NCBI GenBank assembly: GCA_964016885.1
Contig: OZ024744.1
Coordinates: 115,506,001-115,570,000, forward strand
DNA: 64,000 bases
Source: Eledone cirrhosa
Taxonomy: Eukaryota
Direction: 5' to 3'
This document shows, piece after piece, positions 28,550-64,000 of this stretch. How positions within the stretch are numbered: position 1 is the stretch's first letter; each line of letters starts with the position of its first letter. Below the pieces are notes generated by a model. The model did no database searches and was not told the origin of the DNA. It saw nothing but the letters and a program-made list of their open reading frames with translations. The translations under genes and the position numbers were made by a program.

Positions 28550-29113
28550 CGAATTAGCAACGGAGGTGGGTGCTCAGAAAGTACAATAACTAGGGTAAGA
28601 ACGGGATGGAAGAAGTTTAGGGAACTACTACCACTGCTAGCTGCAAAAGGCTTCTCCCTCAGAATGAAAGGCAGACTGTATGATGCGTGTATCCGAACAG
28701 CGATGTTGCATGGTAGTGAGACCTGGGCGCTGAAGGTGGAAGACTTACGTAGATTAGAGAGAAACGAAGCCTGCATGCTCCGATGGATGTGTAACAGTAA
28801 TATACGTGAACGACAAAGCATAAAGGAATTGAGAGAGAGACTGAGCATAAGAGGAATCAAATGCTGCGTGTAGGAGAGGCGGTTACGCTGGTATGGACAT
28901 GTGATGCGTATGAAGGATGACAGCTGCATAAAAAGGTGCAGAGTACTACAAGTTGATGGAAACCGCGGAGTGGGGAGACCCAAGATGACTTGGGATGAGG
29001 TGATAAAAGCCGACCTTACCCAACTACACCTCTCAAAGACAATGACACACGACCGTGACTTCTGGCGTCACGCAGTAATACAGGGTACCCGACCTCCCAT
29101 GGGTACATGCTGA
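28550..29113 (+). pseudogene. C-terminal ~187 codons of an RTE EN/RT polyprotein, one in-frame stop
   Basis: Seen: single frame RISNGGGCSESTITRVRTGWKKFRELLPLLAAKGFSLRMKGRLYDACIRTAMLHGSETWALKVEDLRRLERNE...IKCCV*ERRLRWYGHVMRMKDD...GRPKMTWDEVIKADL...MGTC*. The two + ORFs 28664-28873 and 28901-29113 are in frame, separated by TAG at 28871-28873. Confidence 0.92.
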
Positions 29114-29417
29114 AGCATATAAACAATATGCCCCCACTCCCCCCACCACAAGGTGGTCGTGGACGTGCCACGGCAAAAAAAGCACCCAGCCCACACTGTA
29201 AAGTGGATGTGTAGGTACCACGGAAAAAAGCACCCAGCACTCACTGTAAATGAGGTTGGTGTTAGGAAGGGCATCCAGCTGTAGAAATCAAGCCAGATCA
29301 GTTCCTGTATGAGCAAGGCATGGTCAGCCGACCAGACACTGCCCACAACAGGATAACCCGTCTAACCCATGCTAGCGTGGAAGAACGGACGTAAAACGGT
29401 GATGATGATGATGATGA
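28550..29417 (+). mobile_element. 5'-truncated RTE-clade LINE (ORF C-terminus, 3' UTR, (GAT)n tail) inserted in the satellite
   Basis: Seen: satellite stops at ...TAACAACAC (28549) and resumes TGTACCAGATG (29418); the element ends in a (GAT)n tail. Knowledge: GWKKFREL, LHGSETW, RLRWYGHV.R and GRPK.TW are typical of the post-RT region of RTE-type non-LTR retrotransposons. Confidence 0.93.
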
Positions 29418-32400
29418 TGTACCAGATGTGGTAGCAGAACTGTAATGTAGTCTAGGATGTCTGTATATAACAACACTGTCCCAGGTGTGGTAGCAATACT
29501 GTAATGTGGTCTAGGATGTCTGTATGTAACTACACTGTCCTAGATGTGGTAGAAGTACTGTAATGTAGTCTAGTATGGCTGTATGTAACAACACTGTCCC
29601 AGAGTTGGTAGCAGTACTGTAATGTAGTCTAGGATGTCTGTATGTAACAACACTGTCCTAGATATGGTAGCAGTACTGTAATGTAGTCTAGGATGTCTGT
29701 ATGTAACAACACTGTCCCAGATGTGGTAGCAGTACTGTAATGTGGTCTAGGATGTCTGTATGTAACAACAGTGTCCCAGATGTGGTAGCAGTACTGTAAT
29801 GTGGTCTAGGATGTCTGTATGTAACAACAGTGTCCTAGATCTGGTAGCAGTACTGTAATGTGGTCTAGGATATCTGTATGTAACAACACTGTCCCAGATG
29901 TGGTAGCAGTACTGTAATGTGGTCTAGGATATTTGTATGTAACACTGTCCCAGATGCGGTAGCAGTACTGTAATGTGGTCTAGGATGTATGTATGTCACA
30001 ACACTGTCCTAGATCTCATAGCAGTACTGTAATGTGGTCTAGGATGTCTGTATATAACAACACTGTACTAGATGTGGTAGCAGTACTATAATGTGGTCTA
30101 GGATGTCTGTATATAACAAGACTGTCCCAGATGTGGTCTAGGATGTCTGTATGTAACAACACTGTCTTAGGTGTGGTAGCAGTACTGTAATGTGGTCTAG
30201 GATTTCTGTATATAACAAGACTGTCCCAGATGTGTTAGCAGTACTGTAATGTAGTCTAGGATGTCTGTATATAACTACACTGTCCTAGATGTGGTAGCAG
30301 TACTGTAATGTGGTCTAGGGTGTCTGTATGTAACAACACTGTACCAGATGTGGTAGCAGCACTGTAATGTAGTCTAGGATGTCTGTATGTAACAACACTG
30401 TACCACATGTGGTAGCAGTACTGTAATGTGGTCTAGGATGTCTGTATGTAAAACTGTCCCAGATCTGGTAGCAGTACTGTAATGTGGTCTAGGATGTCTG
30501 TATATAACAAGACTGTCCAAGATGTGGTAGCAGTACTGTAATGTAGTCTAGGATGTCTATATGTAACAACACTGTCCCAGATGTGGTAGCAGTACTGTAA
30601 TGTGGTCTAGGATGTCTGTATGTAACAACACTGTCCCAGATGTGGTAGCAGTACTGTAATGTGGTCTAGGATGTCTGTATGTAACAACACTGTCCCAGAT
30701 GTGGTAGCAGTACTGTAATGTGGTCTAGGATCTCTGTATGTAACAACACTGTCCCAGATGTGGTAGCAGTACTGTAATGTAGTCTAGGATGTCTGTATGT
30801 AACAACACTGTACCAGGTGTGGTAGCAGTACTGTAATGTGGTCTAGCATGTCTGTATGTAACAGCACTGTCCCATATGTGGTAGCAGTACTGTAATGTAG
30901 TCTAAGATGTCTGTATGTAACTACACTCTCCTAGATGTGGTAGCAGTACTGTAATGTGGTCTAGGATCTCTGTATGTAACAACACTGTCCTAGATGTGGT
31001 AGCAGTACTGTAATGTGGTCTAGGATGTCTGTATGTAACAACACTGTCCTAGATGTGGTAGCAGTATTGTAATGTAGTCTAGGATGTCTGTATGTAACAA
31101 CACTGTCCTAGATGTGGTAGCAGTACTGTAATGTGGTCTAGAATGTCTGTATGTAACAACACTGTACCAGATGTGGTAGCAGTACTGTAATGTAGTCTAG
31201 GATGTCTGTATGTAACAACACTGTCCTAGATGTGGTAGTAGTACTGTAATGTGGTCTAGGATGTCTGTATAAAACAACACTGTACTAGATGTGGTAGCAT
31301 TACTGTAATGTGGTCTAGGATGTCTGTATGTAACAACACTGTACCAGATGTGGTAGCAGTACTGTAATGTGGTCTAGCATGTCTGTATGTAACAGCACTG
31401 TCCCATATGTGGTAGCTGTACTGTAATGTAGTCTAGGATGTCTGTATGTAACTACACTCTCCTAGATGTGGTAGCAGTACTGTAATGTGGTCTAGGATGT
31501 CTGTATGTAACAACACTGTCCTAGATGTGGTAGCAGTACTGTAATGTAGTCTAGGATGTCTGTATGTAACAACACAGTCCTAGATGTGGTAGCAGTACTG
31601 TAATGTAGTCTAGGATGTCTGTATGTAACAACACTGTACCAGATGTGGTAGCAGTACTGTAATGTGGTCTAGGATGTCTGTATGTAACTACACTGTCCCA
31701 GATATGGTAGCAGTACTGTAATGTAGTCTAGGATGTCACTATGTAACAACACTGTCCCAGATGTGGTAGCAGTACTGTAATGTGGTTTAGGATGTCTGTA
31801 TGTAATAACACTGTCCCAGATGTGGTAGCAGTACTGTAATGTGGTCTAGGATGTCTGTATGTAACAACACTGTCCCAGAGGTGGTAGCAAAACTGTAATG
31901 TGGTCTAGGATGTCTGTATATAACAACACTGTCCTAGATGTGGTAGTAGTACTGTAATGTAGTCTAGGATATCTGTAATTCACAACACTGCCCCAGATGT
32001 GGTAGCAGTACTGTAATGTAGTCTAGGATGTCTGTATATAACAACACTGTCCCAGATCTGGTAGCAGTACTGTAATGTGGTCTAGGGTGTCTGTATGAAA
32101 CAACACTGTCCATATCGGTAGCAGTACTGTAGCAGGTACTATGTTAACTGTATGTACAAGCACACGTACAGTATGGTAGCAGTACTGCAGTATTGTTGTA
32201 ACACACTGTCCAAGGGTCAGTTCTGTATGTAACGACACTGTCCCAGCTGTGGTAGCAGTACTGTAATGTGGTCTAGGATGTCTGTATGTAACAACACCTC
32301 CCACATGTGGTAACTGTACTGTAATGTGGTCTAGGATGTCTGTATATAACAACACTCTACCAGATGTGGTAGCAGTACTGTAATATAGTCTAGGATGTCT

Positions 32401-42570: not shown

Positions 42571-42614
42571 CAGAAGTAGTAACTCCCTGAACTTTTTCCA
42601 TCATGTCCTTACTG

Positions 42615-42712
42615 ATGCTTCTGTTCTTTCAGAACACCCAACTCCACTAATTTGATCACTCAGGTAACAGAATCTATCAATTAATTCTGAGGATCCACCT
42701 CAGCATTTGGTT
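42615..42712 (-). mobile_element. Second short decayed RTE fragment covering the same F.YL..IS..GCSE motif
   Basis: Seen: minus translation KC*GGSSELIDRFCYLSDQISGVGCSERTEA. Confidence 0.7.
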
Positions 42713-42824
42713 CATTTTTAAGTATAAATAGTTGGGTCAAGCAACCATGCTTTGCTCATACATTCCATCTCTGGAAACCATGAAAACATGGAATGTATGA
42801 GCATGATGTGGTCATCAGACTATA

Positions 42825-42875: not shown

Positions 42876-43189
42876 TAAATAAAACATACCAGTTTGCATT
42901 TGGGAAAAATCCACATTTCTGAAAATGAAGAAAATAAAAATATATTAAAATAAAATAAAGTAACAAGATAGAGTTGTTATTAATGTTATAATAAAAGTTA
43001 ATTAATTTGTTGAGATGACAAGTGTCTCAGTCTTCGCAGCACTCAGCATCACACACCTGTCAAGTGTATGCCAAGTTACATAATACCACCTGATCAACTA
43101 ATTCCATCTGACTGACCCTACATTCACCTGTCTTGATAAAATTCCCACCTGGTTGCACATGTCAGTTCCATTCAGCTGGAATCTGACTT

Positions 43190-43900
43190 CAGATCAGCAA
43201 ATAAAGTGTTCTGACAGACCATCTGCAGACTTCGTAATAAGAAGTCCTCTTTCACCCTTGTTATCATGAACACATCTGGAGTTCTCCTCTCTTCAGAGAG
43301 ATGCATCCTTGTGAGGTGAAGAGAATACTTTGCTGATCTCCTGAACTAGATCACAACAGCATCTTCTGATGTACGTATGGTGCATTTGGGAGTAGTGACT
43401 ACTCTCCCAGAGGCTGAGGTCACAAAAGCAATTAAAGAACTCAAATGTAGCTAGGCCTTAAATAGAGAAGGTATTCTCTGGCTGACTCGTGTGTGCCAGG
43501 TGGCCTGGATATCTGGAAAGACACCTAACCAATGGCAATTGGGAGTGATAATCTCAATTTTCACAAAGGGAAACAAGAGAGATTGTTCAAATTACAGAGG
43601 GGTCTCATTGTAAAGTCTATACTATGTGTCTGGCAATGAGATGTAGGGAGATTGGTGAGTCCAAGCTAGCTGATGTACAGTGTGGTTTTCACCCCGGACA
43701 CAACACAGCTGACCAAATATTCAAACTGCAGCAGGTATTTGAGTATTGCCAAGAGGTGTATTTTGAAGACCTTGCAAAGAGACCTGTTGTGGAAGGTTCT
43801 ACAGGAGTATAGGATCGATGGACAGCTTCTTGTTGCACTGAATGTTGCTATATGCATGCTTTAGTAGTTGTATTTGGATAAATGGTGCTAAATTGAAACA
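43190..43900 (+). mobile_element. Decayed RT-region fragment of a second RTE lineage (Expander/Rex3-like)
   Basis: Seen: F*QTICRLR...GVLLSSERCILVR*REYFADLLN...EAEVTKAIKELK...WLTRVCQVAWISGKTPNQWQLGVIISIFTKGNKRDCSNYRGVSL...KVY..CL...QCGFHPGHNTADQIFKLQQVFE. Knowledge: KG....CSNYRG and Q.GF are N-terminal motifs of non-LTR RT. Lineage assignment is from recall. Confidence 0.85.
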
Positions 43901-44000
43901 CTAAACCTGACACAGGAGATGACAAAGGAATGTAACAAATGGAGGAAAGCAACATTGGAGAAGACCTGGTCAACCCATGCTAAAATAGTGTTGATGATAT
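43901..44000 (+). mobile_element. Short remnant of RTE ORF end and 3' terminus
   Basis: Seen: NLTQEMTKECNKWRKATLEKT resembles HLSKTMTHDRDFWRHAVIQGT near 29030-29090, followed by CAACCCATGCT...GATGAT. Confidence 0.55.
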
Positions 44001-44074
44001 GACATGCACTGTTAGTGTGTATAATGACAGTTATTAAAATCTCTTTTTCTCTCTTACAACCACTCTCTCTCTCC

Positions 44075-45600
44075 CTCTCTCATGAATATCACATATCCAT
44101 CAAAGAATACTCATTTCATTTCTCTCTAGCCATCACATAACCTCTGCATTTACTACACATGTTTCACTTCCATAAAACACTGCACTTTGCACGTAGGCAT
44201 CATACAACCAGTCTTTCATTTGCAGGGAGAAACATTTTGTTGTCAACAAAGGTAGTAGCTCCCTGAACTTTTTCCATCTTCTTATTCTAACTACTATGTT
44301 GAAGTATTTGTACCTTGAATTCCTCACTAAACTCATTTCCTGCTCTCACTTTACTGACAACTCCTCTCTACATGACTGGCACTGCTCTCACAAGCCATTC
44401 TTCTACACCTAGTTTCCTTAAGAACCACCAGATAATAGATTGAGGTACTCTGTCAAAGGCTTTCTCTAGATCTAAATATAGTGTCTTATTTTTAGTTAAG
44501 AACTTCTCTTGTAGTTACCTTAACAAAAAGAGGACATCTATAGTACTTTTCCCAAGCATGAAATCAAACTGCATTTAATTTAATTTGACTCTTTCCCTAA
44601 TTAGCTGTGCTATAACTCCTTCCAACACTTTCATAACTTGGTCCATTAGATATATTCCTCTATAGCTGCTCCTTTCTAGAGCATCACCTTTACCTTTATT
44701 ATTTATGATGGTACTGCTGCACCAGTCATTGGGTATGACACCTTCCTGTATTACCTGATTGATTATGGAAGTTACTAGTTTGACTCCTACCTCTCCTGAT
44801 GCTTTTAGCATCTCAATAGTTAACTCTGAGGGTCCAGCAGCTTTACCACTCCTTCATTTCTTCTATGACCCTATAACTGTCTATTTTAATAGCTGGTCCC
44901 TCTGTTGGCTCAGTTGGGGTTTGTCTCTCTTCCTCCATTCCTTTCTCTCCATTCACCAACCTCTCAAAGTAACATTTCCAGGCCTCTTTCTTTTGAGTAT
45001 CAGTGGTGTTAAGTACACCAGTGTCATTACAACACACTTCCCCCCCACAACATCCTGATTCATACTGACACACTGCCTTGCAATGTGGAACACCTCACAT
45101 CTTTGATCTTCATGTCATAAGACTTTAGCAAAGCTTTCAGTCTCTTTCCAAGCTATGTATACCTGTCATATAGCTTCTCTCTTAGCTACCTGGTATTGGT
45201 CTATGCTACTCCCCATTTCTCCAGTATGCCTGTCTCTTGCCCTTAATGTCTCTACTTACTGTGTTGTACCACCACCAGGTCACCCTCTGTCTGACTGTTA
45301 CTTTGCTCCAAGTCACAAGTCTCTTCAGTAACTTGTAGTAGGTTGTCACATAAGAACTTCCAATTGTCCTCAATGTCGTATATATCTAACTTGTCTCCCC
45401 TCTCATTATATGTATCCCCTAGAGTCTTTTTAAACCTATACTTTATAGAAAACTCCTTTGGTCTCCAAATTCTCCTCCTTTAGATTTTCCTGTTTCTTCT
45501 TGTTCCATCTTGTGCTTCTTTTGATGTCACGAACTGGGAAAGGACTTAACATTCATAACCATCTGCCTGTCTCATTTTCTAAGAAGAAGTTAATATGGCC
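44075..45600 (-). mobile_element. Decayed, internally deleted RTE LINE (endonuclease end, linker, RT N-half, C-terminal motif)
   Basis: Seen (minus, collinear): GHINFFL..DRQMVMNVKSFP; DIEDNWKFLCDNLL; RVTWWW; KKEAWKCYFERLVN; AAGPSELTIEMLKASGEVG...IPNDWCSSTI..KGKGDALERSSYRGI.LMDQVMKVLE; DLEKAFDRVP; then a jump to RWKKFRELLPLL...LYDAYVQSAVFYGSET. No YADD segment found. Confidence 0.92.
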
Positions 45601-48600
45601 TGTGTCTTCACCTGATTGCTAGGTGATCAGGTGACTGGCTCCCTAATTCCAGCTTGTGTCTTCACCTGATTGCTAGGTGATCAGGTGACTGGCTCCCTAA
45701 TACCAGCCTGTGTCTTCACCTGATTGCTAGGTGATCAGGTGACTGGCTCCCTAATTCCAGCTTGTGTCTTCACCTGATTGCTAGGTGATCAGGTGACTGG
45801 CTCCCTAATTCCAGCTTGTGTCTTCACCTGATTGCTAGGTGATCAGGTGACTGGCTCCCTAATTCCAGCTTGTACCTTCACCTGATTGCTAGGTGATCAG
45901 GTGACTGGCTCCCTAATTCCAGCTTGTACCTTCACCTGATTGCTAGGTGATCAGGTGGCTGGCTCCCTAATTCCAGCTTGTACCTTCACCTGATTGCTAG
46001 GTGATCAGGTGACTGGCTCCCTAATTCCAGCTTGTGTCTTCACCTGATTGCTAGGTGATCAGGTGACTGGCTCCCTAATTCCAGTTTGTACCTTCACCTG
46101 ATTGCTAGGTGATCAGGTGACTGGCTCCCTAATTCCAGCTTGTGTCTTCACCTGATTGCTAGGTGATCAGGTGACTGGCTCCCTAATTCCAGCTTGTACC
46201 TTCACCTGATTGCTAGGTGATCAGGTGACTGGCTCCCTAATTTCAGCTTGTACCTTCACCTGATTGCTAGGTGATCAGGTGACTGGCTCCCTAATTCCAG
46301 TTTGTACCTTCACCTGATTGCTAGGTGATCAGGTGACTGGCTCCCTAATTCCAGCTTGTACCTTCACCTGATTGCTAGGTGATCAGGTGACTGGCTCCCT
46401 AATTCCAGCTTGTGTCTTCACCTGATTGCTAGGTGATCAGGTGACTGGCTCCCTAATTCCAGCTTGTACCTTCACCTGATTGCTAGGTGATCAGGTGACT
46501 GGCTCCCTAATTCCAGCTTGTACCTTCACCTGATTGCTAGGTGATCAGGTGACTGGCTCCCTAATTCCAGCTTGTACCTTCACCTGATTGCTAGGTGATC
46601 AGGTGACTGGCTCCCTAATTCCAGTTTGTACCTTCATCTGATTGCTAGGTGATCAGGTGACTGGCTCCCTAATTCAAGCTTGTGTCTTCACCTGATTGCT
46701 AGGTGATCAGGTGACTGGCTCCCTAATTCCAGCTTGTACCTTCACCTGATTGCTAGGTGATCAGGTGACTGGCTCCCTAATTCCAGCTTGTACCTTCACC
46801 TGATTGCTAGGTGATCAGGTGACTGGCTCCCTAATTCCAGCTTGTGTCTTCACCTGATTGCTAGGTGATCAGGTGACTGGCTCCCTAATTCCAGCTTGTA
46901 CCTTCACCTGATTGCTAGGTGATCAGGTGACTGGCTCCCTAATTCCAGCTTGTGTCTTCACCTGATTGCTAGGTGATCAGGTGACTGGCTCCCTAATTCC
47001 AGCTTGTACCTTCACCTGATTGCTAGGTGATCAGGTGACTGGCTCCCTAATTCCAGCTTGTGTCTTCACCTGATTGCTAGGTGATCAGGTGACTGGCTCC
47101 CTAATTCCAGCTTGTACCTTCACCTGATTGCTAGGTGATCAGGTGACTGGCTCCCTAATTCCAGCTTGTGTCTTCACCTGATTGCTAGGTGATCAGGTGA
47201 CTGGCTCCCTAATTCCAGCTTGTACCTTCACCTGATTGCTAGGTGATCAGGTGACTGGCTCCCTAATTCCAGCTTGTGTCTTCACCTGATTGCTAGGTGA
47301 TCAGGTGACTGGCTCCCTAATTCCAGCTTGTACCTTCACCTGATTGCTAGGTGATCAGGTGACTGGCTCCCTAATTCCAGCTTGTACCTTCACCTGATTG
47401 CTAGGTGATCAGGTGACTGGCTCCCTAATTCCAGCTTGTGTCTTCACCTGATTGCTAGGTGATCAGGTGACTGGCTCCCTAATTCCAGCTTGTACCTTCA
47501 CCTGATTGCTAGGTGATCAGGTGACTGGCTCCCTAATTCCAGCTTGTGTCTTCACCTGATTGCTAGGTGATCAGGTGACTGGCTCCCTAATTCCAGCTTG
47601 TACCTTCACCTGATTGCTAGGTGATCAGGTGACTGGCTCCCTAATTCCAGCTTGTGTCTTCACCTGATTGCTAGGTGATCAGGTGACTGGCTCCCTAATT
47701 CCAGCTTGTACCTTCACCTGATTGCTAGGTGATCAGGTGACTGGCTCCCTAATTCCAGCTTGTGTCTTCACCTGATTGCTAGGTGATCAGGTGACTGGCT
47801 CCCTAATTCCAGCTTGTGTCTTCACCTGATTGCTAGGTGATCAGGTGACTGGCTCCCTAATTCCAGCTTGTGTCTTCACCTGATTGCTACGTGATCAGGT
47901 GACTGGCTCCCTAATTCCAGCCTGTGTCTTCACCTGATTGCTAGGTGATCAGGTGACTGGCTCCCTAATTCCAGCCTGTGTCTTCACCTGATTGCTAGGT
48001 GATCAGGTGACTGGCTCCCTAATTCCAGCTTGTGTCTTCACCTGATTGCTAGGTGATCAGGTGACTGGCTCCCTAATTCCAGCTTGTGCCTTCACCTGAT
48101 TGCTAGGTGATCAGGTGACTGGCTCCCTAATTCCAGCTTGTGTCTTCACCTGATTGCTAGGTGATCAGGTGACTGGCTCCCTAATTCCAGCTTGTGTCTT
48201 CACCTGATTGCTAGGTGATCAGGTGACTGGCTCCCTAATTCCAGCTTGTACCTTCACCTGATTGCTAGGTGATCAGGTGACTGGCTCCCTAATTCCAGCT
48301 TGTGTCTTCACCTGATTGCTAGGTGATCAGGTGACTGGCTCCCTAATTCCAGCTTGTGTCTTCACCTGATTGCTAGGTGATCAGGTGACTGGCTCCCTAA
48401 TTCCAGCTTGTACCTTCACCTGATTGCTAGGTGATCAGGTGACTGGCTCCCTAATTCCAGCTTGTGTCTTCACCTGATTGCTAGGTGATCAGGTGACTGG
48501 CTCCCTAATTCCAGTTTGTACCTTCACCTGATTGCTAGGTGATCAGGTGACTGGCTCCCTAATTCCAGCTTGTGTCTTCACCTGATTGCTAGGTGATCAG

Positions 48601-51600
48601 GTGACTGGCTCCCTAATTCCAGCTTGTACCTTCACCTGATTGCTAGGTGATCAGGTGACTGGCTCCCTAATTCCAGCTTGTACCTTCACCTGATTGCTAG
48701 GTGATCAGGTGACTGGCTCCCTAATTCCAGTTTGTACCTTCACCTGATTGCTAGGTGATCAGGTGACTGGCTCCCTAATTCCAGCTTGTACCTTCACCTG
48801 ATTGCTAGGTGATCAGGTGACAGGCTCCCTAATTCCAGCTTGTGTCTTCACCTGATTGCTAGGTGATCAGGTGACTGGCTCCCTAATTCCAGCTTGTGCC
48901 TTCACCTGATTGCTAGGTGATCAGGTGACTGGCTCCCTAATTCCAGCTTGTGTCTTCACCTGATTGCTAGGTGATCAGGTGACTGGCTCCCTAATTCCAG
49001 TTTGTACCTTCACCTGATTGCTAGGTGATCAGGTGACTGGCTCCCTAATTCCAGCTTGTGTCTTCACCTGATTGCTAGGTGATCAGGTGACTGGCTCCCT
49101 AATTCCAGCTTGTACCTTCACCTGATTGCTAGGTGATCAGGTGACTGGCTTCCTAATTCCAGCTTGTACCTTCACCTGATTGCTAGGTGATCAGGTGACT
49201 GGCTCCCTAATTCCAGTTTGTACCTTCACCTGATTGCTAGGTGATCAGGTGACTGGCTCCCTAATTCCAGCTTGTACCTTCACCTGATTGCTAGGTGATC
49301 AGGTGACTGGCTCCCTAATTCCAGTTTGTACCTTCACCTGATTGCTAGGTGATCAGGTGACTGGCTCCCTAATTCCAGCTTGTACCTTCACCTGATTGCT
49401 AGGTGATCAGGTGACTGGCTCCCTAATTCCAGCTTGTACCTTCACCTGATTGCTAGGTGATCAGGTGACTGGCTCCCTAATTCCAGCTTGTACCTTCACC
49501 TGATTGCTAGGTGATCAGGTGACTGGCTCCCTAATTCCAGATTGTACCTTCACCTGATTGCTAGGTGATCAGGTGACTGGCTCCCTAATTCCAGCTTGTA
49601 CCTTCACCTGATTGCTAGGTGATCAGGTGACTGGCTCCCTAATTCCAGCTTGTGTCTTCACCTAATTGCTAGGTGATCAGGTGACTGGCTCCCTAATTCC
49701 AGCTTGTGTCTTCACCTGATTGCTAGGTGATCAGGTGACTGGCTCCCTAATTCCAGCTTGTGTCTTCACCTGATTGCTAGGTGATCAGGTGACTGGCTCC
49801 CTAATTCCAGCTTGTACCTTCACCTGATTGCTAGGTGATCAGGTGACTGGCTCCCTAATTCCAGCTTGTGTCTTCACCTGATTGCTAGGTGATCAGGTGA
49901 CTGGCTCCCTAATTCCAGCTTGTACCTTCACCTGATTGCTAGGTGATCAGGTGACTGGCTCCCTAATTCCAGCTTGTGTCTTCACCTGATTGCTAGGTGA
50001 TCAGGTGACTGGCTCCCTAATTCCAGCTTGTACCTTCACCTGATTGCTAGGTGATCAGGTGACTGGCTCCCTAATTCCAGCTTGTACCTTCACCTGATTG
50101 CTAGGTGATCAGGTGACTGGCTCCCTAATTCCAGTTTGTACCTTCACCTGATTGCTAGGTGATCAGGTGACTGGCTCCCTAATTCCAGCTTGTACCTTCA
50201 CCTGATTGCTAGGTGATCAGGTGACTGGCTCCCTAATTCCAGCTTGTACCTTCACCTGATTGCTAGGTGATCAGGTGACTGGCTCCCTAATTCCAGCTTG
50301 TACCTTCACCTGATTGCTAGGTGATCAGGTGACTGGCTCCCTAATTCCAGATTGTACCTTCACCTGATTGCTAGGTGATCAGGTGACTGGCTCCCTAATT
50401 CCAGCTTGTACCTTCACCTGATTGCTAGGTGATCAGGTGACTGGCTCCCTAATTCCAGCTTGTGTCTTCACCTAATTGCTAGGTGATCAGGTGACTGGCT
50501 CCCTAATTCCAGCTTGTGTCTTCACCTGATTGCTAGGTGATCAGGTGACTGGCTCCCTAATTCCAGCTTGTGTCTTCACCTGATTGCTAGGTGATCAGGT
50601 GACTGGCTCCCTAATTCCAGCTTGTACCTTCACCTGATTGCTAGGTGATCAGGTGACTGGCTCCCTAATTCCAGCTTGTGTCTTCACCTGATTGCTAGGT
50701 GATCAGGTGACTGGCTCCCTAATTCCAGCTTGTACCTTCACCTGATTGCTAGGTGATCAGGTGACTGGCTCCCTAATTCCAGCTTGTGTCTTCACCTGAT
50801 TGCTAGGTGATCAGGTGACTGGCTCCCTAATTCCAGCTTGTACCTTCACCTGATTTCTAGGTGATCAGGTGACTGGCTCCCTAATTCCAGCTTGTGTCTT
50901 CACCTGATTGCTAGGTGATAAGGTGACTGGCTCCCTAATTCCAGCTTGTACCTTCACCTGATTGCTAGGTGATCAGGTGACTGGCTCCCTAATTCCAGCT
51001 TGTACCTTCACCTGATTGCTAGGTGATCAGGTGACTGGCTCCCTAATTCCAGCTTGTGTCTTCACCTGATTGCTAGGTGATCAGGTGACTGGCTCCCTAA
51101 TTCCAGCTTGTACCTTCACATGATTGCTAGGTGATCAGGTGACTGGCTCCCTAATTCCAGCTTGTGTCTTCACCTGATTGCTAGGTGATCAGGTGACTGG
51201 CTCCCTAATTCCAGCTTGTGTCTTCACCTGATTGCTAGGTGATCAGGTGACTGGCTCCCTAATTCCAGCTTGTGTCTTCACCTGATTGCTAGGTGATCAG
51301 GTGACTGGCTCCCTAATTCCAGCCTGTGTCTTCACCTGATTGCTAGGTGATCAGGTGACTGGCTCCCTAATTCCAGCCTGTGTCTTCACCTGATTGCTAG
51401 GTGATCAGGTGACTGGCTCCCTAATTCCAGCTTGTGTCTTCACCTGATTGCTAGGTGATCAGGTGACTGGCTCCCTAATTCCAGCTTGTACCTTCACCTG
51501 ATTGCTAGGTGATCAGGTGACTGGCTCCCTAATTCCAGCTTGTACCTTCACCTGATTGCTAGGTGATCAGGTGACTGGCTCCCTAATTCCAGCTTGTGTC

Positions 51601-52505
51601 TTCACCTGATTGCTAGGTGATCAGGTGACTGGCTCCCTAATTCCAGCTTGTACCTTCACATGATTGCTAGGTGATCAGGTGACTGGCTCCCTAATTCCAG
51701 CTTGTGTCTTCACCTGATTGCTAGGTGATCAGGTGACTGGCTCCCTAATTCCAGCTTGTGTCTTCACCTGATTGCTAGGTGATCAGGTGACTGGCTCCCT
51801 AATTCCAGCTTGTGTCTTCACCCGATTGCTAGGTGATCAGGTGACTGGCTCCCTAATTCCAGCCTGTGTCTTCACCTGATTGCTAGGTGATCAGGTGACT
51901 GGCTCCCTAATTCCAGCCTGTGTCTTCACCTGATTGCTAGGTGATCAGGTGACTGGCTCCCTAATTCCAGCTTGTGTCTTCACCTGATTGCTAGGTGATC
52001 AGGTGACTGGCTCCCTAATTCCAGCTTGTACCTTCACCTGATTGCTAGGTGATCAGGTGACTGGCTCCCTAATTCCAGCTTGTGTCTTCACCTGATTGCT
52101 AGGTGATCAGGTGACTGGCTCCCTAATTCCAGCTTGTGTCTTCACCTGATTGCTAGGTGATCAGGTGACTGGCTCCCTAATTCCAGCTTGTACCTTCACC
52201 TGATTGCTAGGTGATCAGGTGACTGGCTCCCTAATTCCAGCTTGTGTCTTCACCTGATTGCTAGGTGATCAGGTGACTGGCTCCCTAATTCCAGCTTGTG
52301 TCTTCACCTGATTGCTAGGTGATCAGGTGACTGGCTCCCTAATTCCAGCTTGTACCTTCACCTGATTGCTAGGTGATCAGGTGACTGGCTCCCTAATTCC
52401 AGCTTGTACCTTCACCTGATTGCTAGGTGATCAGGTGACTGGCTCCCTAATTCCAGCTTGTACCTTCACCTGATTGCTAGGTGATCAGGTGACTGGCTCC
52501 CTGAT
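45598..52505. repeat. 54-bp tandem array (~128 copies) derived from RTE endonuclease coding sequence
   Basis: Seen: monomer TGT(GT/AC)CTTCACCTGATTGCTAGGTGATCAGGTGACTGGCTCCCTAATTCCAGCT, very homogeneous. Minus strand reads ASHLIT*QSGE(D/G)TS and runs directly into the adjacent RTE. Confidence 0.97.
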
Positions 52506-52519
52506 TTCAGCAGGTCCTT

Positions 52520-52872
52520 TCAGAAGCAACTGTCTCCAACTGGATCCCCAAGTGTGACCAGCCAAGCTCATGGATGTTATCCAAACATCTTGTTCAGGGT
52601 CTACTCCCGGGTCTCCTACCAGTTGGTTTTGCTTTTGCCCATAAAATCTGTCCAGCGATTCTTTCCTGAGATATTTAAAACACATGTCTATAGTATCAGA
52701 GAAGTAGTGGCTCTACCTGGAGTGACTCTCCAAGCTACGCACTCTATCGAGTAACATTACTCCAAAGATCCTTTGGAGTAACCCCATTTTGGCCACTTGT
52801 ATTTGCGATCATATTTCGGTCATTACCCAAGATTCATGACCATAAGGTAAGGGTTGGCACAAAAACTGAATT
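52520..52872 (-). mobile_element. Decayed C-terminal fragment of an Expander/Rex3-like RTE
   Basis: Seen (with frameshifts): SVFVPTLTYGHESWVMTE.I*SQIQVAKMGLLQRIFGVMLLDRVRSLE..LQVEPLLL...SQERIAGQILWAKAKPTGRRPGSRP*TRCLDNIHELGWSHLGIQ. Lineage assignment is from recall. Confidence 0.85.
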
Positions 52873-52873
52873 C

Positions 52874-53592
52874 GGTAGTGATGGTGTCATGATAAAATGC
52901 ACCTAGTATACTCTGTAAAGTGGTAGTGTTGGTGTCATGATAAAATACACCCAGTACACTCTGTAAAGTGGTAGTGCTGGTGTCATGATATAATACACCC
53001 AGTACACTCTGTAAAGTGGTAGTGCTGGTGTCATGATATAATACACCCAGTACACTCTGTAAAGTGGTAGTGTTGGTGTCACAATAAAATACACCCAGTA
53101 CACTCTGTAAAGTGGTAGTGTTGGTGTCACAATAAAATACACCCAGTACACTCTGTAAAGTGGTAGTGTTAGTGTCATGATAATATACACCCAGTACACT
53201 CTGTAAAGTGGTAGTGCTGGTGCCATGATAAAATACACCCAGTAAACTCTGTAAAGTGGTAGTGTTAGTGTCATAATATAATACAACCAGTACACTCTGT
53301 AATGTGGTAGTGTCATGATAAAATACACCCAGTACACTCTGTAAAGTGGTAGTATTGGTGTCATGATAAAATACACCCAATACACTCTGTAAAGTGGTAG
53401 TGTTGGTGTCATGATATAATACACCCAGTACACTCTGTAAAGTGGTAGTGCTGGTGCCATGATAAAATACACCCAGTACACTCTGTAAAGTGGTAGTGTT
53501 GGTGTCACAATAAAATAAACCCAGTACACTCTGTAAAGCGGTACTGTTGGTGTCATGATAAAATACACCCAGTGAACTCTGTAAAGTGGTAG
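52874..53592 (+). repeat. 48-bp minisatellite (~15 copies) expanded from an RTE 3' UTR repeat unit
   Basis: Seen: unit TAAAATACACCCAGTACACTCTGTAAAGTGGTAGTG(T/C)TGGTGTCATGA, with one 42-bp unit near 53300. Matches the 48-bp-spaced units at 29181 and 29229. Confidence 0.95.
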
Positions 53593-55117: not shown

Positions 55118-55152
55118 GTATGGAATAAGTGGGGTGTGGGTGGAATAAGTGG

Positions 55153-58100
55153 AGTGCTACATGGTAGTGAGAGATGGGTAGTAAATGTAGAGGATGTGTG
55201 AAGGGTAGATTGTATGATGTCTGTGTATGTTACATGGTAGTGTGACATGGGTAGTAAATGTAGAGGATGTGTGAAGGGTAGATTGTATGATGTCTGTGTT
55301 ACATGGTAGTGAGACATGGGTATTGAATGTAGAGGATGTGTGAAGGGTAGATTGTATGATGTATGTGTTACATGGTAGTGAGACATGGTTATTGAATGTA
55401 GAGGATGTGTGAAGGGTAGATTGTATGATGTCTGTGTATGTTACATGGTAGTGTGACATGGGTAGTTAATATAGAGGATGTGTGAGGGGTAGATTGTATG
55501 ATGTCTGTGTATGTTACATGGTAGTGAGACATGGGTAGTTAATGTAGAGGATGTGTGAAGGGTAGATTGTATGATGTCTATGTATGTTACATGGTAGTGA
55601 GACATAGGTAGTTAATGTAGAGGATGTGTGAAGGGTAGATTGTATGATGTCTGTGAATGTTACATGGTAGTGGGACATGGGTAGTTAATGTAGAGGATGT
55701 GTGAAGGGTAGATTGTATGATGTCTGTGTATGTTACATGGTAGTGAGCCATGGGTAGTTAATGTAGAGGATGCGTGAAGGGTAGATTGTATGATGTCTAT
55801 GTTACATGGTAGTGAGACATGGGTATTGAATGTAGAGGATGTGTGAAGGGTAGATTGTATGATGTCTGTGTTACATGGTAGTGAGACATGGGTATTGAAT
55901 GTAGAGGATGTGTGAAGGGTAGATTGTATGATGTCTGTGTTACATGGTAGTGAGACATGGGTAGTTAATGTAGAGGATGTGTGAAGGGTAGAGTGTATGA
56001 TGTATGTGTATGTTACATGGTAGTGGGCCATGGGTAGGTAATGTAGAGGATGTGTGAAGGGTAGATTGTACGATGTCTATGTTACATGGTAGTGAGACAT
56101 GGGTATTGAATGTAGAGGATGTGTGAAGGGTAGATTGTATGATGTATGTGTATGTTACATGGTAGTGGGACATGGGTAGTTAATGTAGAGGATGTGTGAA
56201 GGGTAGATTGTATGATGTCTATGTTACATGGTAGTGAGACATGGGTATTGAATGTAGAGGATGTGTGAAGGGTAGATTGTATGATGTATGTGTTACATGG
56301 TAGTGAGACATGGTTATTGAATGTAGAGGATGTGTGAAGGGTAGATTGTATGATGTCTGTGTATGTTACATGGTGGTGTGACATGGGTAGTTAATGTAGA
56401 GGATGTGTGAGGGGTAGATTGTATGATGTCTGTGTATGTTACATGGTAGTGAGACATGGGTAGTTAATGTAGAGGATGTGTGAAGGGTAGATTGTATGAT
56501 GTCTATGTTACATGGTAGTGAGACATGGGTAGTTAATGTAGAGGATGTGTGAAGGGTAGATTGTATGATGTCTGTGTATGTTACATGGTAGTGTGACATG
56601 GGTAGTTAATGTAGAGGATGTGTGAATGGTAGATTGTACGATGTCTGTGTATGTTACATGGTAGTTAGACATGGGCAGTTAATATAGAGGATGTGTGAAG
56701 GGTAGATTGTATGATGTCTGTGTATGTTACATGGTAGTGAGCCATGGGTAGTTAATGTAGAGGATGTGTGAAGGGTAGATTGTATGATGTCTGTGTATGT
56801 TACATGGTAGTGAGACATGGGTAGTTAATGTAGAGGATGTGTGAAGGGTAGATTGTATGATGTCTGTGTATGTTACATGGTAGTGAGACATGGGTAGTTA
56901 ATGTAGAGGATGTGTGAAGGGTAGATTGTATGATGTCTGTGTTACATGGTAGTGAGACATGGGTATTGAACGTAGAGGATGTGTGAAGGGTAGATTGTAT
57001 GATGTCTGTGTATGTTACATGGTAGTGGGCCATGGGTAGGTAATGTAGAGGATGCGTGAAGGGTAGATTGCATGATGTCTATGTTACATGGTAGTGAGAC
57101 ATGGGTATTGAATGTAGAGGATGTGTGAAGGGTAGATTGTATGATGTCTGTGTATGTTACATGCTAGTGGGCCATTGGTAGGTAATGTAGAGGATGTGTG
57201 AAGGGTAGATTGTTTGATGGATGTGTTACATGGTAGTGAGACATGTGTAGTTAATGTAGAGGATGTGTGAAGGGTAGATTATATGATATCTGCGTGTGTT
57301 ACATGGTAGTGTGACATGGGTAGTTAATGTAGAGGATGTGTGAAGGGTAGATTGTATGATATCTATGTTACATGGTAGTGAGACATGGGTAGTTAATGTA
57401 GAGGATGTGTGAATGGTAGATTGTATGATGTCTGTGTATGTTACATGGTAGTGTGACATGGGTAGTTAATGTAGAGGATGTGTGAAGGGTAGATTGTATG
57501 ATATCTATGTTACATGGTAGTGAGACATGGGTAGTTAATGTAGAGGATGTGTGAATGGTAGATTGTATGATGTCTGTGTATGTTACATGGTAGTGAGACA
57601 TGGGTAATTAATGTAGAGGATGTGTGAAGGGTAGATTGTATGATGTCTGTGTATGTTACATGGTAGTGTGACATGGGTAGTTAATGTAGAGGATGTGTGA
57701 AGGGTAGATTGTATGATGTCTGTGTATGTTACATGGTAGTGAGACATGGGTAGTTAATGTAGAGGATGTGTGAAGGGTAGATTGTATGATGTTTATGTTA
57801 CATGGTAGTGAGACATGGGTATAGAATGTAGAGGATGTGTGAAGGGTAGATTGTATGATGTCTGTGTATGTTACATGGTAGTGTGACATGGGTAGTTAAT
57901 GTAGAGGATGTGTGAAGGGTAGATTGTATGATGTATGTGTTACATGGTAGTGGGACATAGGTAGTTAATGTAGAGGATGTGTGAAGGGTAGATTGTATGA
58001 TGTCTATGTTACATGGTAGTGAGACATGGGTATTGAATGTAGAGGATGTGTGAAGGGTAGATTGTATGATGTCTGTGTATGTTACATGGTAGTGAGACAT

Positions 58101-61100
58101 GGGTAGTTAATGTAGAGGATGTGTGAAGGGTAGATTGTATGATGTCTGTGTATGTTACATGGTAGTTAGACATGGGTAGTTAATGTAGAGGATGTGTGAA
58201 GGGTAGATTGTAAGATGTCTGTGTATGTTGCATGGTAGTGAGATATGGGTAGTTAATGTAGAGGATGTGTGAAGGGTAGATTGTAAGATGTCTGTGTATG
58301 TTACATGGTAGTGAGACATGGGTAGTTAATGTAGAGGATGTGTGAATGGTAGATTGTAAGATGTCTGTGTATGTTACATGGTAGTTAGACATGGGTAGTT
58401 AATGTAGAGGAAGTGTGAAGGGTAGATTGTAAGATGTCTGTGTATGTTACATGGTAGTGAGACATGGGTAGTTAATGTAGAGGATGTGTGAATGGTAGAT
58501 TGTACGATGTCTGTGTATGTTACATGGTAGTTAGACATGGGCAGTTAATGTAGAGGATGTGTGAAGGGTAGATTGTATGATGTCTGTGTATGTTAGATGG
58601 TAGTGAGCCATGGGTAGTTAATGTAGAGGATGTGTGAAGGGTAGATTGTATGATGTCTATGTTACATGGTAGTGAGACATAGGTAGTTAATGTAGAGGAT
58701 GTGTGAAGGGTAGATTGTATGATGTCTGTGTATGTTACATGGTAGTGAGACATGGGTAGTTAATGTAGAGGATGTGTGAAGGGTAGATTGTATGATGTCT
58801 GTGTATGTTACATGGTAGTTAGACATGGGTAGTTAATGTAGAGGATGTGTGAAGGGTAGATTATATGATGTCTGCGTATGTTACATGGTAGTGTGACATG
58901 GGTAGTTAATGTAGAGGATGTGTGAAGGGTAGATTGTATGATATCTATGTTACATGGTAGTGAGACATGGGTAGTTAATGTAGAGGATGTGTGAATGGTA
59001 GATTGTATGATGTCTGTGTATGTTACATGGTAGTGTGACATGGGTAGTTAATGTAGAGGATGTGTGAAGGGTAGATTGTATGATATCTATGTTACATGGT
59101 AGTGAGACATGGGTAATTAATGTAGAGGATGTGTGAAGGGTAGATTGTATGATGTCTGTGTATGTTACATGGTAGTGTGACATGGGTAGTTAATGTAGAG
59201 GATGTGTGAAGGGTAGATTGTATGATGTCTGTGTATGTTACATGGTAGTGAGACATGGGTAGTTAATGTAGAGGATGTGTGAAGGGTAGATTGTATGATG
59301 TCTATGTTACATGGTAGTGAGACATGGGTATTGAATGTAGAGGATGTGTGAAGGGTAGATTGTATGATGTCTGTGTATGTTACATGGTAGTGAGACATGG
59401 GTAGTTAATGTAGAGGATGTGTGAAGGGTAGATTGTATGATGTCTATGTTACATGGTAGTGAGACATGGGTATTGAATGTAGAGGATGTGTGAAGGGTAG
59501 ATTGTATGATGTCTGTGTATGTTACATGGTAGTGAGACATGGGTAGTTAATGTAGAGGATGTGTGAAGGGTAGATTGTATGATGTCTGTGTATGTTACAT
59601 GGTAGTTAGACATGGGTAGTTAATGTAGAGGATGTGTGAAGGGTAGATTGTAAGGTGTCTGTGTATGTTACATGGTAGTGAGACATGGGTAGTTAATGTA
59701 GACGATGTGTGAATGGTAGATTGTAAGATGTCTGTGTATGTTACATGGTAGTGAGACATGGGTAGTTAATGTAGAGGATGTGTGAATGGTAGATTGTAAG
59801 ATGTCTGTGTATGTTACATGGTAGTTAGACATGGGTAGTTAATGTAGAGGATGTGTGAAGGGTAGATTGTAAGATGTCTGTGTATGTTACATGGTAGTGA
59901 GACATGGGTAGTTAATGTAGAGGATGTGTAAATGGTAGATTGTACGATGTCTGTGTATGTTACATGGTAGTTAGACATGGGCAGTTAATGTAGAGGATGT
60001 GTGAAGGGTAGATTGTATGATGTCTGTGTATGTTAGATGGTAGTGAGCCATGGGTAGTTAATGTAGAGGATGTGTGAAGGGTAGATTGTATGATGTCTAT
60101 GTTACATGGTAGTGAGACATAGGTAGTTAATATAGAGGATGTGTGAAGGGTAGATTGTATGATGTCTGTGTATGTTACATGGTAGTGAGACATGGGTAGT
60201 TAATGTAGAGGATGTGTGAAGGGTAGATTGTATGATGTCTGTGTATGTTACATGGTAGTTAGACATGGGTAGTTAATGTAGAGGATGTGTGAAGGGTAGA
60301 TTGTATGATGTCTGTGTATGTTACATGGTAGTGGGACATGGGTAGTTAATGTAGAGGATGTGTGAAGGGTAGATTGTATGATGTCTGTGTATGTTACATG
60401 GTAGTGAGCCATGGGTAGCTAATGTAGAGGATGTGTGAAGGGTAGATTGTATGATGTCTATGTTACATGGTAGTGAGACATGGGTATTGAATGTAGAGAA
60501 TGTGTGAGGGGTAGATTGTATGATGTCTGTGTATGTTACATGGTAGTGAGACATGTGTAGTTAATGTAGAGGATGTGTGAAGGGTAGATTGTATGATGTC
60601 TATGTTACATGGTAGTGAGACATGGGTATTGAATGTAGAGGATGTGTGAAGGGTAGATTGTATGATGTCTGTGTATGTTACATGGTAGTGTGACATGGGT
60701 AGTTAATGTAGAGGATGTGTGAAGGGTAGATTGTATGATGTATGTGTTACATGGTAGTGGGACATGGTTAGTTAATGTAGAGGATGTGTGAAGGGTAGAT
60801 TGTATGATGTCTATGTTACATGGTAGTGAGACATGGGTTTTGAATGTAGAGGATGTATGAAGGGCAGATTGTATGATGTCTGTGTATGTTACATGGTAGT
60901 GAGACATGGGTAGTTAATGTAGAGGATGTGTGAAGGGTAGATTGTATGATGTCTGTGTATGTTACATGGTAGTTAGACATGGGTAGTTAATGTAGAGGAT
61001 GTGTGAAGGGTAGATTGTAAGATGTCTGTGTATGTTACATGGTAGTGAGACATGGGTAGTTAATGTAGAGGATGTGTGAATGGTAGATTGTAAGATGTCT

Positions 61101-64000
61101 GTGTATGTTACATGGTAGTGAGACATGGGTAGTTAATGTAGAGAATGTGTGAAGGGTAGATTGTATGATATCTGTGTATGTTACATGGTAGTGAGACATG
61201 GGTAGTTAATGTAGAGGATGTGTGAATGGTAGATTGTAAGATGTCTGTGTATGTTGCATGGTAGTGAGATATGGGTAGTTAATGTAGAGGATGTGTGAAG
61301 GGTAGATTGTAAGATGTCTGTGTATGTTACATGGTAGTGAGACATGGGTAGTTAATGTAGAGAATGTGTGAAGGGTAGATTGTATGATATCTGTGTATGT
61401 TACATGGTAGTGAAACATGGGTAGTTAATGTAGAGGATGTGTGAATGGTTGATTGTAAGATGTCTATGTTACATGGTAGTGAGACATGGGTAGTTAATGT
61501 AGAGGATGTGTGAATGGTAGATTGTACGATGTCTGTGTATGTTACATGGTAGTTAGACATGGGCAGTTAATGTAGAGGATGTGTGAAGGGTAGATTGTAT
61601 GATGTCTGTGTATGTTAGATGGTAGTGAGCCATGGGTAGTTAATGTAGAGGATGTGTGAAGGGTAGATTGTATGATGTCTATGTTACATGGTAGTGAGAC
61701 ATAGGTAGTTAATGTAGAGGATGAGTGAAGGGTAGATTGTATGATGTCTGTGTATGTTACATGGTAGTGAGACATGGGTAGTTAATGTAGAGGATGTGTG
61801 AAGGGTAGATTGTATGATGTCTGTGTATGTTACATGGTAGTTAGACATGGGTAGTTAATGTAGAGGATGTGTGAAGGGTAGATTGTATGATGTCTGTGTA
61901 TGTTACATGGTAGTGTGACATGGGTAGTTAATGTAGAGGATGTGTGAGGGTTAGATTGTATGATGTCTGTGTATGTTACATGGTAGTGAGACATGGGTAG
62001 TTAATGTTGAGGATGTGTGAAGGGTAGATTGTATGATGTCTATGTTACATGGTAGTGAGACATGGGTATTGAATGTAGAGGATGTGTGAAGGGTAGATTG
62101 TATGATGTCTGTGTATGTTACATGGTAGTGTGACATGGGTAGTTAATGTAGAGGATGTGTGAAGGGTAGATTGTATGATGTCTGTGTATGTTACATGGTA
62201 GTGAGACATGGGTAGTTAATGTAGAGGATGTGTGAATGGTAGATTGTAAGATGTCTGTGTATGTTGCATGGTAGTGAGATATGGGTAGTTAATGTAGAGG
62301 ATGTGTGAAGGGTAGATTGTAAGATGTCTGTGTATGTTACATGGTAGTGAGACATGGGTAGTTAATGTAGAGGATGTGTGAATGGTAGATTGTAAGATGT
62401 CTGTGTATGTTACATGGTAGTTAGACATGGGTAGTTAATGTAGAGGATGTGTGAAGGGTAGATTGTAAGATGTCTGTGTATGTTACATGGTAGTTAGACA
62501 TGGGCAGTTAATGTAGAGGATGTGTGAAGGGTAGATTGTATGATGTCTGTGTATGTTACATGGTAGTGTGACATGGGTAGTTAATGTAGAGGATGTGTGA
62601 AGGGTAGATTGTATGATGTCTGTGTATGTTACATGGTAGTGAGCCATGGGTAGCTAATGTAGAGGATGTGTGAAGGGTAGATTGTATGATGTCTATGTTA
62701 CATGGTAGTGAGACATGGGTATTGAATGTAGAGGATGTGTGAAGGGTAGATTGTATGATGTCTGTGTATGTTACATGGTAGTGAGACATGGGTAGTTAAT
62801 GTAGAGGATGTGTGAAGGGTAGATTGTATGATGTCTGTGTATGTTACATGGTAGTGTGACATGGGTAGTTAATGAAGAGGATGTGTGAAGGGTAGATTTA
62901 TGATATCTATGTTACATGGTAGTGAGACATGGGTAGTTAATGTAGAGGATGTGTGAATGGTAGATTGTATGATGTCTGTGTATGTTACATGGTAGTGAGA
63001 CATGGGTAATTAATGTAGAGGATGTGTGAAGGGTAGATTGTATGATGTCTGTGTATGTTACATGGTAGTGTGACATGGGTAGTTAATGTAGAGGATGTGT
63101 GAAGGGTAGATTGTATGATGTCTGTGTATGTTACATGGTAGTGAGACATGGGTAGTTAATGTAGAGGATGTGTGAAGGGTAGATTGTATGATGTCTATGT
63201 TACATGGTAGTGAGACATGGGTATTGAATGTAGAGGATGTGTGAAGGGTAGATTGTATGATGTCTGTGTATGTTACATGGTAGTGTGACATGGGTAGTTA
63301 ATGTAGAGGATGTGTGAAGGGTAGATTGTATGATGTATGTGTTACATGGTAGTGGGACATGGTTAGTTAATGTAGAGGATGTGTGAAGGGTAGATTGTAT
63401 GATGTCTATGTTACATGGTAGTGAGACATGGGTATTGAATGTAGAGGATGTGTGAAGGGTAGATTGTATGATGTCTGTGTATGTTACATGGTAGTGAGAC
63501 ATGGGTAGTTAATGTAGAGGATGTGTGAAGGGTAGATTGTATGATGTCTGTGTATGTTACATGGTAGTTAGACATGGGTAGTTAATGTAGAGGATGTGTG
63601 AAGGGTAGATTGTAAGATGTCTGTGTATGTTACATGGTAGTGAGACATGGGTAGTTAATGTAGAGGATGTGTGAATGGTAGATTGTAAGATGTCTGTGTA
63701 TGTTACATGGTAGTGAGACATGGGTAGTTAATGTAGAGAATGTGTGAAGGGTAGATTGTATGATATCTGTGTATGTTACATGGTAGTGAGACATGGGTAG
63801 TTAATATAGAGGATGTGTGAATGGTAGATTGTAAGATGTCTGTGTATGTTGCATGGTAGTGAGATATGGGTAGTTAATGTAGAGGATGTGTGAAGGGTAG
63901 ATTGTAAGATGTCTGTGTATGTTACATGGTAGTGGGACATGGGTAGTTAATGTAGAGGATGTGTGAATGGTAGATTGTAAGATGTCTGTGTATGTTACAT
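55153..64000 (+). repeat. 73/69-bp satellite array (~120 copies, continues past window end) derived from RTE C-terminal coding sequence
   Basis: Seen: GTTACATGGTAGTGAGACATGGGTAGTTAATGTAGAGGATGTGTGAAGGGTAGATTGTATGATGTCTGTGTAT (73 bp) and 4-nt-shorter variants. Plus strand spells LHGSETWVVNVEDV and VKGRLYDVCV. Confidence 0.97.

Follow-up and report, generated by a model that had tools for sequence, protein, structure and literature searches.

The birth of satellites from pieces of transposable elements (TEs), the ORF2 of long interspersed nuclear elements (LINEs) included, is already well documented. At least 23% of the human minisatellites and satellites are TE-derived (Ahmed and Liang, 2012, PMC3389668; this and the other articles cited by PMC number are drawn on from parts of their text), and the current models of initiation explain about 6% of these TE-derived cases (PMC3389668). 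The LINE-related satellites described include PROsat of Phodopus (L1 ORF2), HinfI and Cen of chicken (CR1) and the common cetacean satellite (3' end of L1) (PMC9659126; PMC6947457), and any TE part, LINE ORF2 among them, can become a satellite monomer (PMC9659126). The sSats of squamates arose several times independently, reach up to 1000 units per locus and are more homogeneous the longer the array (PMC10702118). Tandem insertion of TEs is a different route to tandem repeats (PMC5932611). RTE-type LINEs have expanded in octopus (PMC10294476; PMC13282606), and we found no report of RTE-derived or endonuclease-derived arrays in cephalopods in the open-access texts searched. How minisatellites and satellites come into being remains poorly explained, and useful test cases are arrays that keep their parent flanks, a locus-specific junction and a readable history of block duplications. 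Here we describe a 54-bp tandem array beside a broken LINE in Eledone cirrhosa (assembly GCA_964016885.1, contig OZ024744.1, positions 115,506,001 to 115,570,000 of the forward strand). All sequence analyses cover this one 64-kb stretch, the window, and positions are counted from its first letter.

The array is very probably LINE-derived, i.e., its unit would come from the adjoining broken LINE (the host) and would have been amplified in place by duplication at the DNA level. What characterizes a TE-derived satellite is found here: a head-to-tail array, a monomer with TE homology (when taken with its flank), a terminal unit continuous with the parent and local duplication. The features are listed in Table 1.

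Table 1. Features of the window, ordered by position.
Feature	Positions	Strand	Remarks
59-bp array	1-42313		Interrupted at 28550-29420; Tandem Repeats Finder (TRF)
3' end of a LINE of the host's kind, less decayed	28550..29420	plus	177 codons, 1 stop, 0 frameshifts, 3' untranslated region (UTR), (GAT)n tail
137-bp tandem dimer	42426-42688		Old, 76% matches; duplicates another piece of the LINE open reading frame (ORF); unexpanded
Host LINE fragment, unique sequence	44067..45600	minus	Endonuclease end, linker, N-terminal reverse transcriptase (RT); profile columns up to ~962
54-bp tandem array	45598..52511	minus	128 units + terminal GC; register cut, TRF
Endonuclease-derived part of last unit, ASHLIT*QSGEDT	45601..45639	minus	Profile columns 242-254 (..SHLI/V-TY.SG..)
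Perfect 9-bp inverted repeat in unit, 9-nt loop	45608..45634		Arms 45608-45616 and 45626-45634
Block duplication of 14 units, 15-unit lag (810 bp)	49270..50835		0/2000 and 0/500 shuffles
Block duplication, lag of 10 units (540 bp)	50944..52077		0/500 shuffles
Junction zone in upstream edge unit	52498..52511	minus	GC + TGA at the second LINE's conserved Trp, then 9 nt explained by neither profile
C-terminal ORF fragment of second-lineage LINE	52510..52872	minus	Same orientation as host, cut off at array
48-bp array	52874..53592	plus	15 copies; expanded from a two-copy tandem repeat in the 3' UTR of the host's kind
Degenerate ACT/ACC/ACA trinucleotide-type repeat	54370-55015		About 650 nt
73-bp array	55158..64000	plus	123+ copies, cut by window end; from KGRLYD..LHGSETW.VNVED coding stretch (RT C-terminal) of the host's kind

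Cut in register, the array contains exactly 128 units plus the terminal GC without a single indel, and TRF calls it at 45606-52511 (period 54, 127.9 copies, 97% matches, 0% indels). A preliminary description of this DNA had recognized the 6.9-kb array and stopped it at 52505, 6 nt short of its actual end. The mean pairwise difference between units is 2.9%, falling to 1.0% when the single dimorphic 2-nt site (AC in 65 units, GT in 61, GC in 2) is excluded, and there are 19 distinct unit sequences. Three positions, all of them 7 nt or less from the unique flanks, set the edge units apart from the interior, which would be the expected pattern when the edges of an array escape homogenization. A coding function was considered and ruled out by stops in all six frames of the unit; the longest stop-free run in the array is 35 codons. 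Rfam gave no match to a structured RNA between 42000 and 56000 at the gathering threshold, and no DNA similarity of the unit to other pieces of the window or to other satellites was found. The array is most likely a non-coding satellite devoid of function.

The host was aligned locally, with frameshifts allowed, to a profile of its kind of LINE built from the 52 listed homologs of at least 1000 aa (1059 columns). The alignment begins at column 242, within the last unit, and proceeds to column 962 at 44070 (523 bits), i.e., the array collapsed to one unit is collinear with the endonuclease, a check that had been proposed together with the preliminary description. On the minus strand ASHLIT*QSGEDT of the last unit runs in frame into GHINFFL. 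An unbroken passage from the last unit into the rest of the RTE had been claimed; it holds as far as FFL, beyond which a frameshift near 45578 parts GHINFFL from the downstream RK*DRQMVMNVKSFP. The proposed source of the unit, the late motif of APE-type endonucleases, was borne out: the pattern ..F.K..SHL[IV]TY.SG....[IV]DY.L is present in 52/120 homologs (among the matches listed), and with the register of the unit fixed by the flank the score against the endonuclease profile was reached by 0/20000 shuffles. A free scan of a 20-codon stretch of unit plus flank was equalled by 0/1000 shuffles, by a narrow margin (20.6 vs. 20.1 for the best shuffle). The motif stretch of one homolog aligns with residues ~188-208 of the solved L1 ORF2p, which we take to be the target-recognition hairpin loop beside the catalytic Asp205. 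The repeated unit does not include the codon that corresponds to the invariant Asp of the ..QID.. motif, which is found at 45589-45591 and today reads Asn.

Several results speak against this identification. Taken alone, the 54-bp unit was not convincing in a free scan against the endonuclease profile (35/300 and 10/300 shuffles did as well), hmmsearch scored it at -4.0 bits (independent E-value 1.9) and Pfam had no match to it. Protein searches plus a full HMMER search brought no endonuclease sequence of the host family, and a motif search in part of the supplements of PMC9115989 found no reference for it. The endonuclease identity of the unit is significant solely when unit and flank are taken together, and the profile comparison that had been suggested for the unit is positive with the flank and negative without it.

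The remainder of the LINE had been placed at 45600 to 44075; the fragment is there, and it extends slightly further, to about 44067. Pfam recognizes RVT_1 in the RT stretch below the array, a stretch that matches 283 of 1116 candidate proteins, with identities up to about 58% among the 120 matches listed; the best homologs of this piece are about 56–58% identical among these matches. The homologs are ~1050 aa long, many carry endonuclease, RT and PHD domains (PF03372/PF14529 plus RVT_1), and they match L1 ORF2p at 1.6e-29. Judged by sequence, the host is an APE-type non-LTR (long terminal repeat) retrotransposon with the endonuclease N-terminal to the RT in one ORF. We presume it to be an RTE, a label that comes from the preliminary description and from an architecture resembling that of RTE-2_OV. 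Its heavy decay, already pointed out, is evident in the 10 stops and 7 frameshifts found over 521 codons (last unit included). In addition, profile columns 1-241 (N-terminal) are absent, roughly 175 codons have been deleted internally (about columns 710-887, the C-terminal half of the RT plus the PHD), and the fragment ends at column ~962 of 1059, with the last ~97 columns, the 3' UTR and the tail missing. No 8-mer or longer is common to both ends that could represent a target-site duplication (TSD), which decay could have erased, and the one 7-mer that they share is placed about 120 nt past the end of the host. On the far side of the host the C-terminal profile of the second lineage finds nothing. 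The description of the host as a 5'-truncated copy needs correction: the 5' part of the ORF is absent, yet the 3' end, the tail and a TSD of at least 8 nt are missing too. Because the host lacks these three and no remainder of the second LINE follows downstream, the break may be a later deletion just as well as a truncation during retrotransposition.

Upstream of the array no endonuclease sequence was found. The stretch at 52872-52510 represents instead the C-terminal end of an ORF from another LINE, in agreement with the fragment of another lineage that had been noticed earlier. It is of the ..GRP.TRW.D..LGW..LG...VA.[DE]R..W type, with relatives among 2 of 13 candidates in the protein search and 80 matches in the full HMMER search. 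The profile of this second lineage aligns as far as ERTC at 52510. Immediately after it comes the codon that falls on the conserved Trp of the lineage (the [DE]R..W-type motif occurs in 27/53 of its homolog segments long enough to test). This is the first full codon of the unit, which reads TGG in 125/128 units, TGA in 2 (the edge unit among them) and TTG in 1. In the endonuclease register, 69 of the 71 motif-bearing homologs (a subset of the 148 examined) have Phe at the same position, 2 have Tyr and none has Trp, and two codons on there is a Lys invariant in 71/71 homologs where the window reads CAG/TAG. The endonuclease homology begins about 12 nt into the unit. Going by these alignments, the 54-bp unit probably spans the junction of both LINE fragments, and probably takes about 5 nt from the second LINE and about 40 nt from the endonuclease, with about 9 nt between them that neither profile accounts for.

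The preliminary description had derived the unit from the terminal ~54 nt of a 5'-truncated copy, amplified in place. Read in this way, the whole unit would belong to one LINE and the truncation would date from its insertion. This reading gains from the missing N-terminal 241 columns of the host, from the Thr at 52515, which fits the conserved N-T/S-x-F column, and from the T-C-W codons, whose profile sums do not favor the second lineage (3.3 bits vs. 4.3 bits under the endonuclease columns); the last point, together with the low posterior of the ERTC alignment, also counts against a unit that spans the junction. However, the terminal-piece reading would put TGG/TGA in an invariant Phe/Tyr column where none of the 71 homologs has Trp and CAG/TAG in an invariant Lys column, and the host has neither 3' end, tail nor TSD of at least 8 nt, nor is there a C-terminus of the second lineage past it. 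With the homology starting some 12 nt inside the unit and its first codon at the Trp of the other LINE, we consider the terminal-piece reading unlikely.

The same junction bears on whether the monomer belongs to a multi-locus satellite family that was born elsewhere and later arrived at this locus. Satellites made of retroposon pieces can sit at many loci (PMC10702118), and about 90% of the window is satellite according to TRF. However, both ends of the array read through into unique parent sequence, an arrival leaves the locus-specific junction unexplained, and no copy of the monomer exists elsewhere in the 64 kb: all 128 occurrences of an 18-mer taken from the unit fall within the array (chance expectation for the window 0.08). 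Arrival from elsewhere is thus very improbable; the present locus may, on the other hand, be the founder of a multi-locus family.

Regarding the amplification in place of a piece of the broken LINE, an indication of its timing is that the Tyr/Phe codon of the motif is an in-frame TAG in 128/128 units, and therefore amplification took place most likely after the inactivation of the LINE. The claim of an amplification of about 128-fold in place agrees with the 128 units, with the collinearity of the last unit with the adjoining LINE and with the block duplications inside the array, and the array was likely amplified where it stands once the LINE had decayed. Growth is stepwise, not a single burst. 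Besides the two significant blocks (Table 1), lags of 73 and 2 units in the order of variants were marginal (15/500 and 16/500 shuffles). A regular dimeric higher-order repeat was considered as well and is unsupported over the whole array, in which the two main unit variants alternate no more than by chance (67 switches vs. 65.9). The amplification had been described as recent; the homogeneity is indeed high (2.9%), but low unit divergence dates the last turnover or homogenization, not the birth of the array. With the octopus calibration of a Jukes-Cantor distance of 0.09 for 25 million years (PMC13282606), an arithmetic conditional on the host species, the divergence corresponds very roughly to a turnover age of 1.5–4 million years.

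Tandem copies might also have been made by the RT itself, slipping or jumping between templates at the 5' end during insertion. The position of the array, at the fragment's 5' break, fits such an origin, and in RNA the hairpin of the unit (see below) would form as well. However, every unit carries the inactivating TAG, the units are 2.9% apart next to a contiguous host that is heavily decayed, rare variants are shared by block duplications, and 6.9 kb is about twice the ORF of the full element, all of which makes this origin the least credible of those considered here. It is also highly unlikely that the length or the homogeneity of the array is an artifact of an assembly in which the repeat was expanded or collapsed. 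An 828-nt exact repeat at lag 810 within the array and one of about 4.7 kb at lag 6003 in the 59-bp array would fit an artifact, but the 19 unit types, the scattered private variants, the imperfect block copies and the biologically coherent flanks on both sides do not.

How the duplication of this broken LINE would have started can be proposed in four steps. First, two LINE fragments of different lineages stand head to tail on the minus strand, the downstream one with many stops and frameshifts. A 54-nt stretch across their junction was then probably duplicated. This first duplication might, although we hold the idea only tentatively, have proceeded by misalignment of imperfect short direct repeats at the ends of the unit, aided by the hairpin. 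Finally, the dimer would have grown into the 128-unit array through recurrent unequal exchange, slippage or gene conversion, in steps that included blocks of 10 and 15 units and that would have homogenized the interior too. The setting would be a repeat-rich region in which debris of the host's kind of LINE seeded arrays at least three times. The hairpin stem is intact in 120/128 units; 3–7 of 200 shuffles are as stable, and in the local LINE debris this stability is matched by 29 of 1685 sliding windows, which belong to 4 loci. It is a plausible trigger of the amplification, and neither needed nor sufficient, because the other loci that fold bear no long arrays and the other three arrays are free of hairpins. 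No hairpin of this debris is more stable than a perfect 16-bp inverted repeat with a 19-nt spacer at 42753-42803, which overlaps a 61-bp spaced duplication.

Some of these data weaken the scheme. The exact repeat at the unit ends is just 2 nt (the common GC), and the imperfect match of 8/13 nt was chosen after looking. Four other debris loci fold as stably and bear no long arrays, and the 73-, 59- and 48-bp units show no hairpin (34, 97 and 66 of 200 shuffles, respectively, are as stable). The two main unit variants do not alternate beyond chance, and the evidence is limited to 64 kb.

In the preliminary description the 54-bp array was a single case, but two of its neighbors, with units of 73 bp and 48 bp, also derive from the host's kind of LINE. 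The 73-bp unit was compared with two LINE copies of the window (0/200 shuffles each) and with the profile (3/300), and its LINE homology reaches about 12–15 nt into the unique upstream flank. The 48-bp unit matches the LINE 3' UTR (0/200 shuffles), and its array runs on into the UTR (to about 53690) and the tail. The less decayed copy at 28.5 kb is 5'-truncated and inserted in the 59-bp satellite, and no array has grown from its own 5' break. Because the sister arrays use other parts of the LINE and this 5' break is arrayless, we infer that the common factor of the arrays is the region, and not the 5' break or the endonuclease sequence. The mean divergence between units, compared on units of modal length only, is 2.8% for the 54-bp array (125 units), 4.3% for the 73-bp (73), 6.5% for the 48-bp (9) and 6.6% (200 sampled of 332 units) and 7.3% (137 units) for the 59-bp array.

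Several other observations were made on these neighbors. The 73-bp array (55143-64000) has unit variants of 73 and 69 nt, and its unit looks as if it had been duplicated between two ORF stretches of ~12 nt that resemble each other (MKGRL and just past VED), with a 10-nt deletion; it would fit initiation at short direct repeats better than the 54-bp unit does. For the copy at 28.5 kb a TSD is not evident, and its closest named matches are Octopus bimaculoides UniRef entries (65–66% over about 41–42% of the query). A protein labeled Herbaspirillum sp. (metagenome-assembled genome), with RT and PHD domains, matches a quarter of the LINE piece of the window at 80% identity and is likely animal DNA in a bacterial bin. 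At 43150-44000 an RT fragment of another LINE lineage, on the plus strand, joins a C-terminus and tail of the host's kind near 43890, a second junction of two lineages that bears no array. At 42270-42460 a LINE fragment borders the end of the 59-bp array, and the profile alignment extends, weakly, into the last unit of the array near the WMC motif. Derivation of this 42-kb satellite from a LINE was not significant (best DNA comparison 14/200 shuffles, profile 270/300) and is possible at most. Within its positions 678-12000, besides the exact repeat at lag 6003, others occur at lags of 3357, 3003 and 2646; these long-lag exact repeats are either very recent block duplications or effects of the assembly.

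Taken together, the window could be seen, although we regard this broader view as doubtful, as a satellite nursery, in which at least three arrays would have arisen independently, within 19 kb, from debris of the host's kind (54 bp from the endonuclease, 73 bp from the RT C-terminus and 48 bp from the 3' UTR), plus the stalled 137-bp dimer and possibly the 59-bp satellite, each attached to its parent and at a different stage of divergence, with the 54-bp unit chimeric and unique to the locus. If the genome as a whole behaved in this way, its satellites would stem mainly from LINE-seeded birth, and the rules of birth (microhomology, hairpin, regional permissiveness) would be directly measurable. 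With three arrays in the same window, regional effects can be told apart from effects of the sequence. The 54-bp array by itself brings no new function or mechanism, and is one further well-resolved case, whose value lies in being a clean one, in which the unit probably spans a junction and two sister arrays lie nearby.

As to the parent, the octopus RTE-2_OV encodes endonuclease, RT and zinc finger in one ORF of about 1100 aa (PMC9115989), and the homologs of the window, at about 1050 aa, combine endonuclease, RT and PHD; the likeness is one of architecture, and the host copy is dead. Like the human TE-derived repeats, the array reflects a TE part duplicated after insertion and expanded by local duplication; however, the human cases outside the known models have mostly two units, compared with 128 here (PMC3389668). 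The Haber-Louis type of initiation uses flanking direct repeats of 5–10 bp (PMC3389668; PMC6947457), against the exact 2 nt and imperfect 8/13 of the 54-bp unit. With PROsat-type satellites it shares the use of LINE sequence as monomer, and it differs in that the parent copy is still attached in register and in that the unit contains a 54-nt endonuclease piece of an RTE-like LINE; neither an endonuclease domain nor an RTE is the source of any of the LINE-satellite examples in the parts of PMC9659126 and PMC6947457 drawn on here. Maize CRM1TR and CRM4TR are likewise locus-specific arrays that a retrotransposon gave rise to where they stand, more than once and independently, and that were homogenized locally, but their source is an LTR retrotransposon (LTR/UTR-derived), their monomers are far longer and they are centromeric (PMC3648361). 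The squamate sSats show the same arrangement of an internal retroposon piece in array with a terminal unit that runs into the parent element (PMC10702118); they are derived from short interspersed nuclear elements (SINEs), whereas the parent of the 54-bp array is LINE coding sequence and its unit probably spans two elements.

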